DNA of 64,000 nucleotides from IMG/VR virus record IMGVR_UViG_3300025723_000028; one strand, given 5' to 3'. The notes below the pieces were generated by a model. It saw only the letters and a list, made by a program, of their open reading frames with translations. It ran no database searches and was not told where the DNA came from. Below are positions 2,018 through 25,835 of the stretch, one piece after another (position 1 is the first letter of the stretch; each line of letters begins with the position of its first letter). The position numbers were made by a program, and so were the translations under genes. This stretch comes from an uncultured virus (IMG/VR IMGVR_UViG_3300025723_000028) (taxonomy: Duplodnaviria > Heunggongvirae > Uroviricota > Caudoviricetes).

Positions 2018-2796
2018 AATTTTTAGTTCAGATGAATCTCATACATGAAATGGGATTGTCACAAGTGCGCAATGCGATCGAATCATATCCGCATCAGTAT
2101 GTAAGCGTGATCCCATTTTCCAATGAGTTGATATCCGAAGAGCCAGTTGAAGGCACCGACTATCTTGCCTATGGAAGTACACTGTTTATCAAAATTGGGC
2201 ATGAGCTTGGTTGGCAGGGTGTTTACTTTGACTATGATAACTTTAACTACGAAACCGCAGTTAAGTATCGTAGTGATATGCTGAATGATGATATTATACT
2301 TCCTGCTAGTGAAGTAATTCCATACCTTGAATCATCCACAGTAGATACATGGTTTATTCGGCCTGCGCTTGATCTAAAACATTTTAATGGACAGGTTATT
2401 GAAAGGGAAGAATGTATTACGTGGTTGAAAGATGCCATGGCGTGTGCATCAAGCGGGTCTTATCAAATCACCCCGGATCTTAAAATTGTATTGGCTCGAC
2501 CAAAAAACATTCAAGCAGAATGGCGTTGGTTCATAGTTAATGGGAAGATTATTTCCGGAGCAATGTATCGCTGTCGTGGACAACTTGTTAAGTATCGTGA
2601 GCTAGACCAAACTGTTATTGACGAGGCTCAAAAAATGGCAGATGGTTGGTTACCGCATCTTAATTGTGTCATGGATACTGCATTAGTCGATGACAAACTT
2701 TCAGTAGTTGAATTCAATTGTATCAATGGCAGCGGATTCTATGGACACGATGTCACTGCTATTTTTACAGCACTAGCGGAAGATTATAGTGTTTAA
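2014..2796 (+). CDS. ATP-grasp domain protein
   Basis: WFIRP, EWRWFIVNG, VMD...VVEFNCINGSGFY ATP-grasp pattern. Confidence 0.7.
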   Translation: MKFLVQMNLIHEMGLSQVRNAIESYPHQYVSVIPFSNELISEEPVEGTDYLAYGSTLFIKIGHELGWQGVYFDYDNFNYETAVKYRSDMLNDDIILPASEVIPYLESSTVDTWFIRPALDLKHFNGQVIEREECITWLKDAMACASSGSYQITPDLKIVLARPKNIQAEWRWFIVNGKIISGAMYRCRGQLVKYRELDQTVIDEAQKMADGWLPHLNCVMDTALVDDKLSVVEFNCINGSGFYGHDVTAIFTALAEDYSV

Positions 2797-2889
2797 CAAT
2801 TATTTTTACCAAAATGGTTGATTATGCGTACTTATTTGCGTATAATTTTTATATTAACTAAATAACTTTATAACTTCGTAAAAAAGAAG

Positions 2890-2918
2890 TTGACAAGGAT
2901 ACTAAATAGTAGTACAAT
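2890..2918 (+). promoter_or_regulatory. sigma70-type promoter upstream of leader peptide and tRNA locus
   Basis: TTGACA-17 nt-TACAAT. Confidence 0.75.
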
Positions 2919-2926
2919 TACATATC

Positions 2927-3085
2927 ATGAAAAACACAAGACTTTCCATATCGTATCAGTTACTCCAAACCTCAGCATTATGCTGGAGTCCGGTAGCCAC
3001 TCTACGCTCAGAAAGTCATATTGCGTTTAATATGATTGATACAGGCAAAGAGTATAGTAGGGTCCGAGAAGGATGGGATGGTTAA
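2927..3085 (+). CDS. putative 52-aa leader peptide (attenuator)
   Basis: ATG just after the promoter; MKNTRLSISYQLLQTSALCWSPVATLRSESHIAFNMIDTGKEYSRVREGWDG; followed by a terminator. Confidence 0.55.
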   Translation: MKNTRLSISYQLLQTSALCWSPVATLRSESHIAFNMIDTGKEYSRVREGWDG

Positions 3086-6933: not shown

Positions 6934-7008
6934 ACAGCTATCGTCTATCGGTTAGGACACCAGGTTTTCATCCTGGCGAGCGGGGTTCGATTCCCCGTAG
7001 CTGTACCA
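6934..7008 (+). tRNA. tRNA-Glu(TTC)
   Basis: Cloverleaf, CCAGG-TTTTCAT-CCTGG. Confidence 0.9.
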
Positions 7009-7050
7009 AAAATTTTTACAGCAAACAAATTTTGCTTAAATAATATCAAC

Positions 7051-7126
7051 GCCCTCATAGCTCATTTGGTAGAGCACCGCATTAGTAATGCGGTGGTGGT
7101 CAGTTCGAATCCGACTGAGGGCACCA
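7051..7126 (+). tRNA. tRNA-Thr(AGT)
   Basis: CCGCA-TTAGTAA-TGCGG; near copy of tRNA-Thr(TGT) at 29111. Confidence 0.85.
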
Positions 7127-7131
7127 GTAAT

Positions 7132-7221
7132 GGGTAAGTGGCCGAGTGGTTGATGGCTCTAGTCTTGAAAACTAGCGATCCTGAAAGGGGTCCGTGAGTT
7201 CGAATCTCACCTTGCCCTCCA
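7132..7221 (+). tRNA. tRNA-Ser(TGA)
   Basis: CTAGT-CTTGAAA-ACTAG, long variable arm. Confidence 0.9.
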
Positions 7222-7234
7222 AATTGTAATATAC

Positions 7235-7324
7235 GGAGCGTGGGCCGGATGGTAAGGCAGCAGATTGCTAATCTGTACAGCGGCTCATACCGCTGATAGG
7301 GTTCGACTCCCTAACGCTCCGCCA
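7235..7324 (+). tRNA. tRNA-Ser(GCT)
   Basis: GCAGA-TTGCTAA-TCTGT, long variable arm. Confidence 0.9.
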
Positions 7325-7333
7325 AAAATTTAT

Positions 7334-7411
7334 TCCGCAGAACCCGAGTATGGACATGGGCGTGGCTGTTAACCACTGTATAAATTGGTTCGATTCCAAT
7401 GTGCGGAGCCA
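7334..7411 (+). tRNA. tRNA-Asn(GTT)
   Basis: GTGG-CTGTTAA-CCAC; TCCGCA/TGCGGA G CCA. Confidence 0.75.
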
Positions 7412-7419
7412 AAAAAAAT

Positions 7420-7514
7420 AGTAGCGAGCATTGGTATGCGGCTGTGTTTTATAAACACGGGAGACTGGTCAGATGGGCTGGAACGATAGAGTTCGAATCT
7501 CTACGCTACTACCA
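7420..7514 (+). tRNA. atypical tRNA with TAT anticodon (Ile) and long variable arm
   Basis: AGTAGCG/CGCTACT ACCA; TGTGT-TTTATAA-ACACG. Confidence 0.6.
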
Positions 7515-7520
7515 GATATT

Positions 7521-7545
7521 GCGTCCGTAACTCAACTGTATAGAA
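7521..7545 (+). pseudogene. 5' fragment of tRNA-Arg
   Basis: GCGTCCGTAACTCAACTGTATAGA vs GCGTCTGTAGCTCAACTGGATAGA at 8330. Confidence 0.6.
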
Positions 7546-7670
7546 AAACAAGTCTTATGTAACATCAATAACAAACAATTAGTGCATACATCCACTTGTT
7601 GGCTCTAAATTCTATATTGCTAAATATTAAAAATACAACGTGTATTATCAAAAATTTACAAGGAATTGGA

Positions 7671-8324
7671 ATGAAAATAATTTCATTGGATTTACAACAT
7701 GACGCTGATGTGGTAAAAGAAGAAATAGCAAATGATCCCAATGAATGGTTTTGGCCTTATTCAGATGAACATCATATATTTGAACAAGCTCACATGAAAT
7801 TTATAAACAGAAATTTAAATTATTTCAACTTTGCTTCAATGGTAGCACAAACTACCGAGCCTGACGATTTCAATCCTAACCTTCAAAAAACACTAAATTT
7901 TTGTAATAAAATTCGAACATTAACTGGAGATAATGGTCCGTTTGGTCGAATGTGTGTATGGGATTTGCCTTCTCAATCACAATTATTACCCCATACAGAT
8001 AGATACTGGTATCATTTTAATATAATTAGAAATATATTTGTAATCAGCGATAATCCTGAAAATAAATTAAAAATCAATATCAATAATGTTCCAGTCATAT
8101 GCAAAAAAGGAACATTATTTCAATTTAATCCTGCTACTGAATTACATGAATTTATCAATCATAGTAATGGGAATTTTTATTTTTTAGGGTTTGACTTTTG
8201 GAAAGTTGAAAATTTGTCAAGACACCTTTCAATTTTAAATATAATGGAAATTATTAATAATCCATCTCGTCTCAATGGGTTTGGAGCAAATGGTACGCCA
8301 TGCAAATATATATCAAAGCATTAG
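7671..8324 (+). CDS. 2OG-Fe(II)/Asp-Asn beta-hydroxylase-like oxygenase
   Basis: LLPHTD...LHEFIN (HxD...H); AGGA RBS before ATG 7671. Confidence 0.6.
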   Translation: MKIISLDLQHDADVVKEEIANDPNEWFWPYSDEHHIFEQAHMKFINRNLNYFNFASMVAQTTEPDDFNPNLQKTLNFCNKIRTLTGDNGPFGRMCVWDLPSQSQLLPHTDRYWYHFNIIRNIFVISDNPENKLKININNVPVICKKGTLFQFNPATELHEFINHSNGNFYFLGFDFWKVENLSRHLSILNIMEIINNPSRLNGFGANGTPCKYISKH

Positions 8325-8329
8325 ATCAT

Positions 8330-8406
8330 GCGTCTGTAGCTCAACTGGATAGAGTTCTGGTCTTCGAAACCAGCTGTTGGGAGTTCGAATCTCTCCAGAC
8401 GCACCA
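8330..8406 (+). tRNA. tRNA-Arg(TCG)
   Basis: CTGGT-CTTCGAA-ACCAG, full cloverleaf. Confidence 0.9.
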
Positions 8407-8412
8407 AATAAT

Positions 8413-8447
8413 ACCTTTGTAGTTAAATGGTATAACAGCCGCTTGAT
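8413..8447 (+). pseudogene. 5' half of disrupted tRNA-Ile(GAT)
   Basis: ACCTTTG acceptor strand, D-arm, ends at CTTGAT anticodon; partner half at 9192-9219. Confidence 0.75.
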
Positions 8448-8477
8448 CTGACTAAATAATCTCATAGGAGATATTTA

Positions 8478-9122
8478 ATGAAAAGAAATACGACTACTTG
8501 TTCAAAATGTAATAGTGAAGTATCATTATCAAACTATACAAAGCATTTTTTAAGTAAAAAATGTTTGTCTGGTGGTAAACAAATTGCTAACTCATCATTA
8601 TCGTGTATTTATTGTAATGCCGTATTCTTACGTTCTTCTGGACGAGGAGTTCACGAAGTTCAATGTGAATTTAATCCGCAAAGAAGAATTCTAAATCTAG
8701 GGAAAGTTGCATGGAATCTTGGTAATAGAAATACACCTGATATGAGAAACCCAGAGTTTATGGGAAAACGGGGTGGATATCGCCCCAACTCCGGAAGAAG
8801 TAAAAAATTTAGAGTATTAGATTCATTCGGAAAAGAAACTGTGTTACAGAGTACTTACGAATTAAGATGTAGTGAAATATTGAAGGAACTTCAAATAAAA
8901 TGGCTTAGACCAAAAGCACTAAAGTATGACAATAGAAACTATTTTGCTGATTTTTATTTACCAGATTATGATATCTGGTTAGATCCTAAAAATAGTTACA
9001 AAGCAAAACAAGACGAAGAGAAAATAGCAAAAGTAATAGAACAAAATAAAATTAAGTTATACATTCTTTTAGACGAACATCTGACTAAAGATTACATTGC
9101 CCGATTAGCTCAGTTGGTTTAG
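8478..9122 (+). CDS. putative homing endonuclease (Zn fingers plus PD-(D/E)XK-like domain)
   Basis: CxxC/H motifs; QSTYE...YFADFYLPDYDIWLDPK; stop codon lies inside the following tRNA. Confidence 0.7.
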   Translation: MKRNTTTCSKCNSEVSLSNYTKHFLSKKCLSGGKQIANSSLSCIYCNAVFLRSSGRGVHEVQCEFNPQRRILNLGKVAWNLGNRNTPDMRNPEFMGKRGGYRPNSGRSKKFRVLDSFGKETVLQSTYELRCSEILKELQIKWLRPKALKYDNRNYFADFYLPDYDIWLDPKNSYKAKQDEEKIAKVIEQNKIKLYILLDEHLTKDYIARLAQLV

Positions 9123-9177
9123 TAGCGCCATCTTGATAAGGTGGAGGTCCCTGGTTCAAGCCCAGGATCGGGTACCA
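9099..9177 (+). tRNA. tRNA-Ile(GAT)
   Basis: CCAT-CTTGATAA-GGTGG region with GAT anticodon; GCCCGAT/ATCGGGT ACCA. Confidence 0.85.
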
Positions 9178-9191
9178 AAATATATACCATT

Positions 9192-9219
9192 ACAAGTTCA
9201 ATTCTTGTCGAAGGTACCA
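9192..9219 (+). pseudogene. 3' half of disrupted tRNA-Ile
   Basis: ACAAG-TTCAATT-CTTGT T-arm, then CGAAGGT ACCA which pairs with ACCTTTG at 8413. Confidence 0.75.
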
Positions 9220-9241
9220 GTAACGTAGTAAATAGTAACAT

Positions 9242-9316
9242 GGGTCAATAGTGTAATTGGCAACACCGCAGTCTCCAAAACTGCTATTCTAGATTCGAGT
9301 TCTAGTTGGCCCGCCA
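9242..9316 (+). tRNA. tRNA-Trp(CCA), second copy
   Basis: GCAGT-CTCCAAA-ACTGC. Confidence 0.85.
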
Positions 9317-9336
9317 AATTAACCTGAGAGGTCGCA

Positions 9337-9807
9337 ATGAAGTTCAACATACCACAAATTAAAGAGTTTATAGACAGTCAAGGTCCCAACACTAAAATTT
9401 ATATTGGTGTGGATTCGGAACGAGTTAAAAAAGGTACACAATGGTTTGCTGACTATACAGCGGCTATCGTTGTTCACTTAGATGGAAAACATGGTTGCAA
9501 ACTGTTTGGCGAGGTAACTCGTGAAAGAGATTATGATCGAGTTGACAAACCAAATACACGCTTAATGACTGAAGTATTCAAAGTGTCGGAATTATATTTA
9601 AAATTATCTGAAGTATTAGAAGGACGTGAAGTTGAAGTTCATCTTGATCTTAATCCAGATGATGAGTTCAAAAGTTCTAATGTGGTAGCGCAAGCTATTG
9701 GATATATACGAGGTACTTGTAACGTTGAACCACGTGTTAAGCCTTTCGGGTTTGCTGCATCGTATGCTGCCGACAGATTCAGAAGTTTGAAGGCGGTTAA
9801 CGAGTAA
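9337..9807 (+). CDS. RNase H-like YkuK/DUF458 family protein
   Basis: IYIGVDS...EVHLDLN...AASYAADR. Confidence 0.7.
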   Translation: MKFNIPQIKEFIDSQGPNTKIYIGVDSERVKKGTQWFADYTAAIVVHLDGKHGCKLFGEVTRERDYDRVDKPNTRLMTEVFKVSELYLKLSEVLEGREVEVHLDLNPDDEFKSSNVVAQAIGYIRGTCNVEPRVKPFGFAASYAADRFRSLKAVNE

Positions 9808-10034
9808 TGTCACAGGATAATTTAATTTATTCTGGACCAATGTTTAGGGCGATGGCCTGGGGAAGAATGTTTGCTGTATTACCTCATCGCTGCATTAGAA
9901 GCCGCAAGATAATATGGTTTAAATATGCTAGATCAGGTTACCTTATAACTGGTCTAGGACAAGGCGATTCAGTATGGGTGTGGATGACTGAACAAGAGTA
10001 CTTAATACATTGTTTAAAGGCTGGCGATGAGTAA
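9807..10034 (+). CDS. hypothetical protein
   Basis: ORF coupled to its neighbours by overlapping stop/start. Confidence 0.55.
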   Translation: MSQDNLIYSGPMFRAMAWGRMFAVLPHRCIRSRKIIWFKYARSGYLITGLGQGDSVWVWMTEQEYLIHCLKAGDE

Positions 10035-10488
10035 TAGCGCAAAAGGACGTAAAAGTTATGACAGTACTATGGGTAATACCATAGTACCGTTCTTCAATCG
10101 CAATGTAACACCTTATCCAACAGAAGCAGGTGGTCCAAAGTTTGAGTTAATTCCTGTTACTAAACAAAAAGACATTATGATTAATAATGCTCGATTGTTT
10201 GCACAACAAGAGTATGATCGTATTATGGAATTGGTTTCGGTATTAGAACGACAAGCTGCTGATATTAAACGCAGATTGGATATGACTGATTTAATACATA
10301 GTTGTGTATATGATTTTCAATTGACTATGGGTCAGACCTACTGGGTAATAAAAGATACACGCAAAGATACAGTAATATTATCAGGAATGTCACCCACAGA
10401 TTGGACCAGTGGTATTCCAGTAGATTATGAATACTTAATAAAGGTACGTTACATGGGTGATCACTCATGGATGGAATTAAATGAATAA
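10027..10488 (+). CDS. hypothetical protein (DUF2452-like)
   Basis: PYPTEAGGPKF...QQEYDRIMEL...LSPxDW-like pattern. Confidence 0.55.
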   Translation: MSNSAKGRKSYDSTMGNTIVPFFNRNVTPYPTEAGGPKFELIPVTKQKDIMINNARLFAQQEYDRIMELVSVLERQAADIKRRLDMTDLIHSCVYDFQLTMGQTYWVIKDTRKDTVILSGMSPTDWTSGIPVDYEYLIKVRYMGDHSWMELNE

Positions 10489-10489
10489 T

Positions 10490-10520
10490 GCCCCGGTGGT
10501 GTAATGGTAGCCACGTTAAT
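10490..10520 (+). pseudogene. 5' half of disrupted tRNA-Leu
   Basis: GCCCCGG TGGTGTAATGGTAGCCACG; acceptor partner CTGGGGC ACCA at 11122-11132. Confidence 0.7.
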
Positions 10521-10565
10521 TTGTTTTTCAACACGTTTAGCATAAATAAATGCGGAGGCAAAAAT

Positions 10566-11024
10566 ATGTTATTAATTGAAAATTATATTACACAATCTAA
10601 AGAACAAAGGCAACGGCACATAGATTTAACTGATCCATGTATAGAACGAGGTGGTCCACAAAAAGGTGGATTATCAAGTTATTGTAAAGGACTAATGGCA
10701 CATTTATTAGATACTACTATTCCAAGTGGTCATAAAATACATGTGTGCCATGCCTGCAACAATGAAAAATGTAGTAACCCAAAGCATTTGTATTGGGGAA
10801 CTGCACAAGAGAATAGATTAGATCAAGGTCATAATACTTCTCCGTGGGACAGAATGGTTGAGAAATATGGTTACGAAGAAGCCTGCAGGATGAACGCTAA
10901 AGGCAAGAAAGGTAACACCAACGGTTCTGGAAACAAGGATAAGCCTAAGACTGAAGATCAAAAGAAAAAAATCTCCGAGAGCATTAAGTTGCACTGGGAG
11001 AAAAGAAAAGGGCTCGTGGCGTAA
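10566..11024 (+). CDS. HNH homing endonuclease with NUMOD3-like tail
   Basis: VCHACNNEKCSNPKHLYWGTAQEN; KPKTEDQKKKISES; stop codon inside tRNA-Leu. Confidence 0.85.
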   Translation: MLLIENYITQSKEQRQRHIDLTDPCIERGGPQKGGLSSYCKGLMAHLLDTTIPSGHKIHVCHACNNEKCSNPKHLYWGTAQENRLDQGHNTSPWDRMVEKYGYEEACRMNAKGKKGNTNGSGNKDKPKTEDQKKKISESIKLHWEKRKGLVA

Positions 11025-11092
11025 TTGGTAGCCGCACTGGATTTAGGTTCCAGCGAGAAATCGTGAGAGTTCGAGTCTCTCCGAGCCCACCA
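11010..11092 (+). tRNA. tRNA-Leu(TAG)
   Basis: CTGGA-TTTAGGT-TCCAG, variable arm, ACCA. Confidence 0.9.
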
Positions 11093-11097
11093 AACTT

Positions 11098-11132
11098 GCC
11101 CCGATAGAGTTCGAGTCTCTCCTGGGGCACCA
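11098..11132 (+). pseudogene. 3' half / minihelix of disrupted tRNA-Leu
   Basis: AGAG-TTCGAGT-CTCT C CTGGGGC ACCA. Confidence 0.7.
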
Positions 11133-11139
11133 AAACAAA

Positions 11140-11685
11140 ATGATAAACATATTAGAAATCAATGATTTAAGTAATACTAAAATAGTTGACTTGTTAAAGT
11201 TTTCGTTTGAAGAAATTAATGATGACAAAATTATTAAAAATTATCATCCTGATTTCCACAATGAACCTGGAAATATATTTTATATACTTGACCAAGGTAG
11301 ATATCGTAAGGGTTTCGGGAAATATTTTGTGGTTACAATTGATAACAAATATGCATGTAGTGCCGGATGGAATGAATATGAACTTAATAATAATGTAGCA
11401 TTACTATTAACTCGTATGTATGTTGCACCTCAATATCGAAGAAAATATATAATCGGTAATAACATATTACCGCAGTGTATAGCCGAAGCTGATAATTATA
11501 AACATCTGTGGATTACAGCCAATGACTATAATAAATCTATATACACATATTTTGAAAGATCATCACAAAATAAAAGAACAACTTTATTTGATGATTGGCC
11601 AGATATCTACCGTAAATTTACTCCTATAGGTAAAAAAACTGTATACTATACAGAACAGTGGGTAGCTGAGTATAATAAAATTTAA
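11140..11685 (+). CDS. GNAT-like acyltransferase
   Basis: ACSAGW...LLTRMYVAPQYRRK acyl-CoA-binding-like motif. Confidence 0.55.
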   Translation: MINILEINDLSNTKIVDLLKFSFEEINDDKIIKNYHPDFHNEPGNIFYILDQGRYRKGFGKYFVVTIDNKYACSAGWNEYELNNNVALLLTRMYVAPQYRRKYIIGNNILPQCIAEADNYKHLWITANDYNKSIYTYFERSSQNKRTTLFDDWPDIYRKFTPIGKKTVYYTEQWVAEYNKI

Positions 11686-24638: not shown

Positions 24639-25835
24639 ATGTACCCAATAGACAACGTAAAAATGTGGTCCGGCGATATGGAAGTCGAACAGGCTGCTAT
24701 GGATCAACTGCGTAATATCAGTGCTTTGCCAATTTTAGCAGGTCATGTGGCAGTTATGCCCGATGTCCATATGGGCAAAGGTGCCACCGTGGGATCAGTT
24801 ATCCCAACCCGCAGTGCAATTATTCCTGCCGCAGTTGGTGTGGATATTGGGTGTGGAATGTGTGCGGCTATGACTAATCTAACCGCATCTGATTTGCCAG
24901 ATAGCCTAGTCAGCTTGCGTAATCAAATTGAACGTGACGTACCTGTGGGGTTTAACGAACACAAGCAGGGTATTCCCAGTGTAACAGGTCCATATGCTGA
25001 TGTATTGCGTAAGAACTTACGCAATACCATGGATCGTTTTGAACATTTAGCCCTAGTGCCACATTTGAACCGTGCTGACTTTAACAAGATTGGACGGCAA
25101 GTTGGTACTCTTGGTGGCGGAAATCACTTTATCGAGCTGTGTTTAGATAGCGAAGATCGAGTGTGGATCATGTTACATAGCGGCAGTCGTGGTATTGGTA
25201 ATCAAATTGGTTCTGTTGCTATCGAATTAGCTAAGGAGCAAGCATTGAAGCGAGATTACAGTCTTGCTGATCGAGACTTGGCTTGGCTTGACGAAGGAAC
25301 CGCAGAGTTTGATGCTTACATTGAAGCTATGTTATGGGCGCAAGATTATGCACGTTTTAACCGTGATACTATGATGAATTTAGTTACCTCACTGATGCTA
25401 CGTCGATTTCCACAAATGAAAATTGTAGGAGAAGTTGTTAATTGTCATCATAACTTTACCTCCATCGAAGAACATTTCGGTGAAAAAATGTGGGTCACAC
25501 GTAAAGGTGCAGTGTCAGCGCAAGCAGGACAAATGGGAATTATTCCTGGATCAATGGGTGCTAAATCATTCATTGTACAAGGAAAAGGCAATGCCGATTC
25601 TTACTGTTCGTGCTCACATGGTGCTGGGCGTAAACACAGCCGTAATGGTGCAAAACGTCTATTTTCATTAGATGATCTAGCATCGCAGACTGCTGGTGTT
25701 GAGTGCCGCAAAGACTCAGGTGTACTGGACGAAATTCCAGGTGCTTATAAGAACATAGACGACGTTATGAGTGCTCAAAGAGACCTTGTTGAGATCGTTC
25801 ATACGCTAAAACAAGTATTATGTGTCAAAGGTTAA
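24639..25835 (+). CDS. rtcB: RNA 2',3'-cyclic phosphate/5'-OH ligase RtcB
   Basis: VMPDVHMGKG, VGVDIGCG, GTLGGGNHFIE, HSGSRG, SHGAGR, DEIPGAYK. Confidence 0.95.
   Translation: MYPIDNVKMWSGDMEVEQAAMDQLRNISALPILAGHVAVMPDVHMGKGATVGSVIPTRSAIIPAAVGVDIGCGMCAAMTNLTASDLPDSLVSLRNQIERDVPVGFNEHKQGIPSVTGPYADVLRKNLRNTMDRFEHLALVPHLNRADFNKIGRQVGTLGGGNHFIELCLDSEDRVWIMLHSGSRGIGNQIGSVAIELAKEQALKRDYSLADRDLAWLDEGTAEFDAYIEAMLWAQDYARFNRDTMMNLVTSLMLRRFPQMKIVGEVVNCHHNFTSIEEHFGEKMWVTRKGAVSAQAGQMGIIPGSMGAKSFIVQGKGNADSYCSCSHGAGRKHSRNGAKRLFSLDDLASQTAGVECRKDSGVLDEIPGAYKNIDDVMSAQRDLVEIVHTLKQVLCVKG

Follow-up and report, generated by a model that had tools for sequence, protein, structure and literature searches.

We describe an interrupted transfer RNA (tRNA) gene in a 64,000-nucleotide (nt) stretch of DNA, hereafter called the window, from a large uncultured lake phage (IMG/VR record IMGVR_UViG_3300025723_000028; Duplodnaviria, Heunggongvirae, Uroviricota, Caudoviricetes). 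The gene for tRNA-Ile(GAT) is broken directly after its anticodon by a 739-base-pair (bp) insert (8448-9186), which carries a nuclease gene together with a second, intact tRNA-Ile(GAT) of different sequence. Our reading, to which we assign a probability of about 0.8, is that the insert is a free-standing homing-endonuclease cassette that occupies a tRNA gene by bringing a spare and not by splicing itself out. The same-anticodon intact cloverleaf within the insert, the existence of relatives both with and without the insert, and the recurrence of such inserts at the same tRNA position are all observed as such. An earlier note on this DNA, made from the sequence alone, had proposed a mobile, non-splicing unit that destroys its target tRNA and supplies a replacement copy, and we return to its claims where the evidence bears on them.

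The Interrupted tRNA Gene

What is left of the resident gene stands on either side of the insert, on the plus strand like the other features of this locus. The 5' half (8413-8447), a dead gene fragment covering positions 1-36 of a 74-nt tRNA-Ile(GAT), runs from ACCTTTG to CGCTTGAT and halts at the third base of the anticodon GAT. It retains the acceptor strand ACCTTTG, a D-arm (GTTA/TAAC) in which 4 of 4 stem pairs are intact, the anticodon-stem strand GCCGC and the loop portion TT-GAT. The 3' remnant (9187-9219) takes up the gene at position 43, the last base of the anticodon stem, and continues through the variable loop, the T-arm (ACAAG/CTTGT) and the acceptor strand CGAAGGT to A73 and CCA. 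A tRNA-Ile profile searched with nhmmer places the two pieces at model positions 2-36 and 45-75, and the two acceptor strands (8413-8419 against the remnant) form 7 of 7 pairs. Positions 37 to 41/42 are missing, and the insert stands where relatives have AAGCG(G), the 5-6 nt that make up the 3' strand of the anticodon stem. The earlier note had placed the 5' half at 8413-8447, ending at the anticodon, had paired CGAAGGT with ACCTTTG and had regarded the target as destroyed, all of which agrees with a direct reading of the pieces. Its orphan 3' part, given as 9192-9219, does exist but starts earlier, at 9187.

The cassette begins with a 30-nt left end (8448-8477) that opens with CT. Directly after the 5' half the sequence reads CTGAC-TAAATA-A, with TAAATA at 8453-8458, followed by a ribosome-binding site (RBS), AGGAG (8466-8470), and an ATG at 8478. 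The homing-endonuclease gene (8478-9122) encodes 214 amino acids (aa) and terminates with TAG (9120-9122) in the D-loop of the carried tRNA-Ile(GAT) (9099-9177), a 79-nt gene, CCA included, that overlaps the last 24 nt of the nuclease open reading frame (ORF). A 9-nt linker, AAATATATA (9178-9186), forms the right end of the insert; it is identical in contig L015 and reads AAAATATATG in L059 (contigs and loci are cited by our L numbers). The TAAATA, RBS, nuclease ORF and intact but divergent tRNA-Ile(GAT) at 9099-9177 of the earlier note are thus all present.

Evidence that one gene was interrupted comes from relatives in which it is whole. The exact 35-nt 5' half occurs in five IMG/VR contigs, and each of the five continues it into an intact 74-nt tRNA-Ile(gat) gene whose last 33 nt equal 9187-9219 of the window, so the match of the two halves is not a matter of chance. 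The 5' half is identical (35/35) to the intact genes of L016-L020, and the 3' remnant is identical (33/33) to the intact tRNA 3' end in L001, L014, L016, L018 and L020. Three of the five contigs (L016, L018 and L020) also keep the gene order of the window, namely Arg(tcg)-Ile-(Trp)-RNaseH-like ORF. On the left, tRNA-Arg(tcg) (8330-8406; ARAGORN) is common to the insert-free relatives, and on the right, tRNA-Trp(cca) (9242-9316; ARAGORN) is shared with L018. In blastn alignments L016, L018 and L020 match the window at 93-96% identity over 8329-8447, break at 8447 and resume at 9187, with 100% identity over the remnant; L018 then follows the window over 9187-9821 at 86% identity. Since the alignments stop and resume at these positions, the 739 bp between them are an insert in the window. 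The alignment with insert-free relatives that the earlier note had suggested therefore yields sharp boundaries at 8447/9187, and five contigs keep whole the gene that the rejoined halves would make. Among collinear relatives the cassette is absent from L016, L018 and L020 and present, with sharp ends, in L058, L059 and L060.

The carried gene is identified as tRNA-Ile(gat) by ARAGORN and scores 52.8 bits against the Rfam tRNA model RF00005, for which the gathering score is 29. Minimum-free-energy folding of the carried tRNA alone gave no cloverleaf, as is usual for tRNAs, so the ARAGORN and Rfam assignments are relied upon. The carried and resident genes share their anticodon and differ in anticodon stem and in D-stem, where bases 22-25 read TAGC in the carried and TAAC in the resident gene, with 22 of 35 positions alike when the carried tRNA is compared with the resident 5' half. 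Among the 27 tRNA genes that ARAGORN finds in the window it is the sole tRNA-Ile(GAT), which, with its anticodon and intact structure, suits the replacement role that the earlier note had given it. The same 79-nt tRNA is present in L015 and L059, and the IMG/VR search found it beside this nuclease gene alone, on the contig of L015. Presumably the spare is expressed and charged.

The cassette is also found in three genomic backgrounds. L058 has the same sequence as the window. In L059/L060 (188- and 116-kilobase contigs) the enzyme is 95% identical and the left junction is the same, while the right junction differs from that of the window by one indel and one base; past the remnant these contigs are L020-like, with an ORF, whereas the window and L018 go straight to tRNA-Trp. 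L015 retains the final 44 codons of the nuclease gene, 93% identical, with the same tRNA, linker and remnant, and its downstream sequence is L014-like, with a different tRNA-Trp. The left junction of the window was not found in IMG/VR. One insertion junction in three backgrounds is what homing via flanking homology predicts, and ordinary phage recombination could contribute to the spread. Taken with its presence or absence in syntenic genomes, this distribution supports the earlier description of the unit as mobile.

Two further features of the cassette bear mention. In L015, a stretch of ~450 nt (2540-3000) that is richer in G and C, structured-looking and non-coding replaces the 5' three-quarters of the nuclease gene, bounded by tRNA-Leu(taa) on one side and by the remaining 44 codons of the coding sequence on the other. 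In the window, an 11-nt direct repeat, ATCTGACTAAA, occurs at the left junction (8446-8456) and recurs at 9079-9089, 10 nt ahead of the carried gene, where it codes for a conserved HLTK motif. The repeat is possibly due to chance but could mediate loss of the nuclease gene.

Recurrence across the Family and Competing Explanations

Protein-alignment scans gave 36 viral and 80 metagenome loci, which together with the window make 117 loci in 83 distinct regions. ARAGORN found a tRNA overlapping or abutting the nuclease stop codon as follows: tRNA-Ile(gat) in 44 regions, Arg(tct) in 3, and Met, Ile(tat) and "Asp(atc)" in 1 each. A profile built from 37 distinct carried tRNAs was then searched in the 100 nt upstream of each ATG, and 40 loci had a match beginning at model position 15 or lower. 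Of these matches, 25 end at position 36, 6 at position 35 and 2 at position 34, so that 33 of 40 stop at the anticodon; one reaches 74. On the other side, the carried tRNA is followed directly by a 3' remnant whose start falls within model positions 40-57 in the window, L059, L022, L027/L072, L070, L071, L092 and L099. When remnants are compared with their own 5' halves, the acceptor strands match at 7/7 positions in the window and L027 and at 6/7 in L022 by script, and at 7/7 in L071 and L093 and 6/7 in L070 by eye. A second empty site is provided by the 5' half of the L033 type, which is the start of an intact tRNA-Ile in L141; the L033-type 3' remnant is found in L005/L006, again lacking AAGCG.

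At the left end of the cassette, the spacer from junction to ATG measures 16-41 nt across the family. Of 28 distinct spacers, 26 have TAAATA, 20 open with CT right after the anticodon, and 12 contain exact TATAAATA, compared with 0.7% of shuffled sequences. The TAAATA motif probably represents a late promoter of the T4 type, judging by its likeness to the consensus of such promoters. A hairpin in the 5' untranslated region over the RBS did no better than shuffled sequences (z = -0.87).

Two lineages of the family deserve a separate comment. In L005/L006, ~100 nt lie between the carried tRNA and the remnant and end in ...TTTGAT-TAATAAAC, which resembles a second left-junction signature without a nuclease gene and possibly reflects nested insertions followed by loss of one gene. 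In L047 (1766-1839; the same in L008-L013 and L048-L051), the carried gene is a TAAC-type tRNA-Ile save for its anticodon loop, TTATCAA, which is the exact reverse complement of TTGATAA and is the reason why ARAGORN names it tRNA-Asp(atc). The broken half upstream has GGG instead of GAT. The loop is not a read error, because it is seen in several contigs, and it may have arisen by inversion of the hairpin loop.

The recurrent 5' piece could be explained in another way, as an old conserved part of the element's control region, with the downstream tRNA being the resident and the nuclease homing to a place before tRNA-Ile. Such an account would fit the observations that the 5' piece is almost always present whereas 3' remnants are often absent, that some 5' pieces are reduced to GGTAGAGCA plus the anticodon-stem strand (L028, L038, L044 and L046), and that the enzyme tree tracks the carried tRNA poorly. 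It does not fit the window, where the half equals at 35 of 35 positions an intact gene at the same place in insert-free relatives and pairs 7/7 with a remnant lying beyond the carried tRNA. Nor does it fit the way in which the 5' halves of different loci vary in acceptor and anticodon stems yet keep 4/4 D-stem pairs, the matching 3' remnant or intact counterpart of at least six more types (L022, L027, L070, L071, L093 and the L033 type), or the two types whose broken gene is found intact in insert-free relatives. We therefore consider it quite unlikely for the family at large; it may hold for some of the truncated members.

Alternatively, two tandem tRNA-Ile(GAT) genes may have been resident, with the nuclease gene entering the first and the apparent spare being a resident paralogue and not cargo. 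Extra copies do occur, as in L044 and L046, where a whole tRNA-Ile(gat) gene immediately precedes the truncated half. What makes this very improbable for the window is that in L016, L018 and L020 just one tRNA-Ile(gat) separates Arg(tcg) from Trp and no gene like the 79-nt tRNA is present, that the IMG/VR search gave the 79-nt tRNA solely next to this nuclease gene (L015), and that the nuclease stop codon lies inside it. We give equally little credence to a one-off scar, in which a nuclease gene and a neighboring tRNA were pasted in by a single illegitimate recombination event that was not directed at the anticodon loop. Neither junction has long homology and 5-6 nt are gone, as such an event might leave them, but 33 of 40 upstream pieces end at model positions 34-36, the same AAGCG is missing in two unrelated target types, and the cassette is found in three backgrounds. 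That the split tRNA still functions, through a self-splicing intron or by joining of its halves with, for example, the phage RtcB ligase, is hardly credible given that no intron model matches at an expect value (E) <= 1, only 30 nt separate the junction from the ATG, the ORF enters the next tRNA, the deleted 3' strand of the anticodon stem leaves joining with no means to rebuild the anticodon arm, and many family members have no 3' remnant at all.

The intron search covered 7000-11500 of the window with the group I and other intron models of Rfam and gave no match at E <= 1. The nuclease ORF does not sit within an intron or intein; it has its own RBS, starts 30 nt past the junction and terminates within the tRNA gene that follows. 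The resident tRNA could not be rebuilt by splicing, because the 3' strand of its anticodon stem is deleted, and the earlier description of the unit as non-splicing is in keeping with all of these findings. A group I intron-encoded endonuclease in the anticodon loop was considered and rejected, as there is no ribozyme match and the exons cannot rejoin to a complete tRNA.

The Nuclease

The 214-aa protein has a first zinc finger at residues ~8-30, a second at 43-63 and a PD-(D/E)XK nuclease domain at ~106-214. In 19 homologues E128, D158 and D169-P-K171 are invariant, as are C8, C11, H59 and C63. We read E128, D158, D169 and K171 as the likely catalytic motif E...D...(D/E)xK. The AlphaFold model is confident for residues 110-214, and the predicted fold is that of a PD-(D/E)XK enzyme with a restriction-endonuclease-like alpha/beta core. 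Its structural relatives are the catalytic domain of I-Bth0305I and Vsr/DUF559-like endonucleases (PDB 3r3p, 1cw0 and 3hrl), at just 12-21% sequence identity. The N-terminal CxxC...H...C fingers are specific to this nuclease family when compared with I-Bth0305I and the Vsr/DUF559-like enzymes. A GIY-YIG (SegB-like) assignment was dropped, as no GIY-YIG Pfam model was found in 19 members at E <= 1 and the fold is PD-(D/E)XK.

No Pfam nuclease model matches the domain in the window protein or in family members, and a PDB sequence search with the nuclease gave no match. PHROG returns phrog_9019 ("Holliday junction resolvase", 1e-6) and phrog_15137 ("endonuclease", 0.0055). The 50,697 deposited phage records of INPHARED contain no near DNA match to the window, and at the protein level (tblastn) they yield just five weak matches to the nuclease at 25-36% identity. 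Homologues are numerous, with 287 clusters at E <= 1e-3; among the 120 clusters listed, the sole source name is "hypothetical protein" and no Pfam domain is given. Comparison with the 95% identical enzyme of L059 shows 17 synonymous and 10 nonsynonymous differences and a nonsynonymous-to-synonymous ratio (pN/pS) of 0.15, which indicates that the gene is under purifying selection.

Nuclease genes that end in tRNAs are not confined to this family. Distant relatives of the nuclease domain (29-43% identity) have their stop codon inside other tRNAs or near tRNA 3' fragments, including L114, L119 and L121 (Arg tct), L123 (Met cat) and L125, L126 and L131 (Gln nearby). The wider superfamily may contain lineages specialized on different tRNAs. 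The window itself has a second nuclease gene (10488-11024), of the HNH/His-Me finger type (phrog_1872, 2.5e-8), which ends inside tRNA-Leu(tag) (11010-11092). No broken tRNA half is seen upstream of it, because the preceding ORF abuts the gene.

Specificity and the Proposed Mechanism

The broken half is never like its own carried tRNA above background, with at most 25 of 35 positions alike. GAGC, the canonical D-stem strand at positions 22-25, is present in 20 of 28 broken tRNAs and in 3 of 33 carried ones (Fisher p = 6e-7, uncorrected for relatedness). The commonest carried type is the TAAC allele, which is the allele broken in the window. A link to the number of fingers is also apparent. The junction is mapped at 33 loci, a count that includes near-duplicates, and 8 of the enzymes there have two CxxC fingers while 25 have one. 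Seven of the eight two-finger enzymes (window, L059, L021, L061, L022, L032 and L035) are in T22 targets (TAAC/TAAT/TAGC/TAGT), the eighth (L105) is in a GAGC target, and all 25 one-finger enzymes are in GAG(C/T) targets. Those two-finger enzymes that the enzyme tree covers are split between two clades.

This correlation fits a finger region that recognizes the D-arm and cassettes that attack each other's spares. Together with the allele difference between broken and carried tRNAs, it lends indirect support to cutting of the resident allele by the enzyme and to the resistance of the carried copy that the earlier note had proposed. A tentative extension, which we regard as a little short of even odds, is an arms race over the tRNA-Ile(GAT) alleles of phages. 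One-finger enzymes would break the GAGC type and spread spares with odd D-stems (TAAC), and a lineage that had acquired a second finger, and to which the enzyme of the window would belong, would have been retargeted to that spare and would now break it and install a third allele. Were this true, the diversity and debris of phage tRNA arrays would largely have been written by competing elements that break one gene and bring a spare, and finger modules would read the D-arm of tRNA genes. Finger number set against D-arm allele offers a specificity code that can be tested directly. A division of the cassettes into two cleanly reciprocal classes was considered as well and dropped, since co-phylogeny of the enzyme with the carried or the broken tRNA is weak or absent.

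The proposed course of events is as follows. In a mixed infection, the enzyme would recognize the DNA of a tRNA-Ile(GAT) allele that lacks the cassette, over a stretch spanning the D-arm and the anticodon arm, and would cut it at or near the anticodon loop. The break would be repaired from the cassette-bearing genome, with the tRNA pieces and flanks serving as homology arms, and the cassette, whose layout is observed, would thereby come to lie between target positions 36 and 42/43. The target gene, which is observed to be broken, should then no longer be cuttable. The carried tRNA, with its different D-stem and anticodon stem, would escape cutting and keep the phage supplied with tRNA-Ile(GAU).

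Several points weigh against this interpretation. Where the enzyme cuts, which site it recognizes and that the spare resists it are predictions from sequence. At the stop codon, 33 of the 83 regions have no ARAGORN tRNA, a number that includes loci at the ends of contigs, distant homologues and a few cases, such as L021 and L045, in which a tRNA can be seen by eye. IMG/VR yielded no intact counterpart of the L027-type half. The p value given for GAGC overstates independence, because the counts include related sequences. The enzyme tree follows the carried tRNA weakly (Mantel rho 0.13, p ~0.05) and the broken half not at all (rho -0.06, p 0.66); enzyme, spare and target are therefore reshuffled, and enzyme and spare are no fixed pair. 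The spare has a G1-U72 pair and a D-stem of 3 bp, and its function as a tRNA is a prediction. As for the promoter-like motif, that of the window (ACTAAATA) is two mismatches from TATAAATA, and the window shows no excess of TATAAATA, with 7 copies against 16 expected.

Relation to Known Systems

To our knowledge, homing endonucleases are thought to survive in essential conserved genes only by means of self-splicing introns or inteins and otherwise to be intergenic. The cassette would add a third route, in which the gene is destroyed and a replacement, presumably uncut by the enzyme, is carried along. It would be a new form of free-standing homing. In the openly accessible literature, subscription-only papers being outside the search, no account was found of a tRNA gene split in this way, with the spare borne by the nuclease cassette. 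New here are the statistics across the family, another empty site and the association of finger number with target allele. Such elements account for stranded tRNA halves and for the way in which alleles turn over in the tRNA arrays of phages, and they define a large modular family of zinc fingers joined to PD-(D/E)XK, each member apparently tuned to one tRNA gene.

Two known occupants of tRNA genes offer a comparison. I-Ssp6803I (PDB 2ost) is a PD-(D/E)XK homing endonuclease of a group I intron in the anticodon loop of a cyanobacterial tRNA-fMet. It has the same broad fold and also occupies a tRNA anticodon loop; the cassette does so without a ribozyme. Integrative elements that enter tRNA genes have a copy of the tRNA 3' end in their phage attachment site (attP). 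Both they and the cassette use a tRNA gene as a landing site, and in both the sequence brought in keeps a tRNA that is functional or, for the cassette, predicted to be so. However, integrative elements rely on an integrase and restore the same gene by duplication of its 3' end, whereas here a nuclease and, as we infer, repair would deliver a complete divergent gene.

The nearest functional analogue is T4 SegB. SegB of T4/T6 is a free-standing GIY-YIG homing endonuclease in a tRNA cluster that cuts the tRNA genes of related phages and drags neighboring tRNAs along (PMC2330249, PMC13096335). It recognizes the T-psi-C motif and cuts many tRNA genes with relaxed specificity and no isotype preference (PMC13096335). 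Like the nuclease gene of the window, segB of T4 lies free-standing in a phage tRNA array between tRNA-Arg and tRNA-Ile (PMC2988022). SegB is a GIY-YIG enzyme in an intergenic spacer, whereas here a zinc-finger PD-(D/E)XK enzyme lies inside its target gene after position 36. The enzyme here is tied to one isoacceptor, what remains of the target is two dead fragments, and a spare with the same anticodon overlaps the stop codon of the nuclease gene.

A second parallel is provided by "genes in pieces," in which mobE in nrdA of Aeh1 and mobA in T4 gene 39/60 split protein genes (PMC2988022). There, as in the window, a free-standing nuclease gene lies inside a conserved gene with no intron or intein. 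The split proteins reassemble and work, but a tRNA cut at the anticodon cannot, and the cassette therefore carries a whole spare gene. Phage tRNAs have a further role against host anticodon nucleases, for which SegB and Septu offer a comparison (PMC13096335). It would follow, speculatively, that cassettes may spread tRNA variants relevant to defense.

Other Features of the tRNA Array

Apart from its tRNA genes, the window holds an RtcB-type ligase, an HNH gene and an ORF of 4759 aa. A 242-aa ORF (7596-8324) lies between tRNA-Ile(tat) and tRNA-Arg(tcg) and matches Asp/Asn beta-hydroxylase at 20 bits, below the cutoff. It is absent in L018, L020 and L059, where the two tRNAs adjoin, and represents another insertion or deletion in the array. 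The neighboring "tRNA-Ile(tat)" (7420-7514; also in L016, L020, L014 and L128) is a conserved gene of 92-95 nt with a long extra arm, and in L128 a distant homologue of the nuclease domain terminates inside such a tRNA. The RtcB-type RNA ligase (24639-25835; phrog_1075, 1.6e-144) belongs to the same region as the 27-tRNA array, a position that fits the repair of tRNAs cut by host anticodon nucleases.

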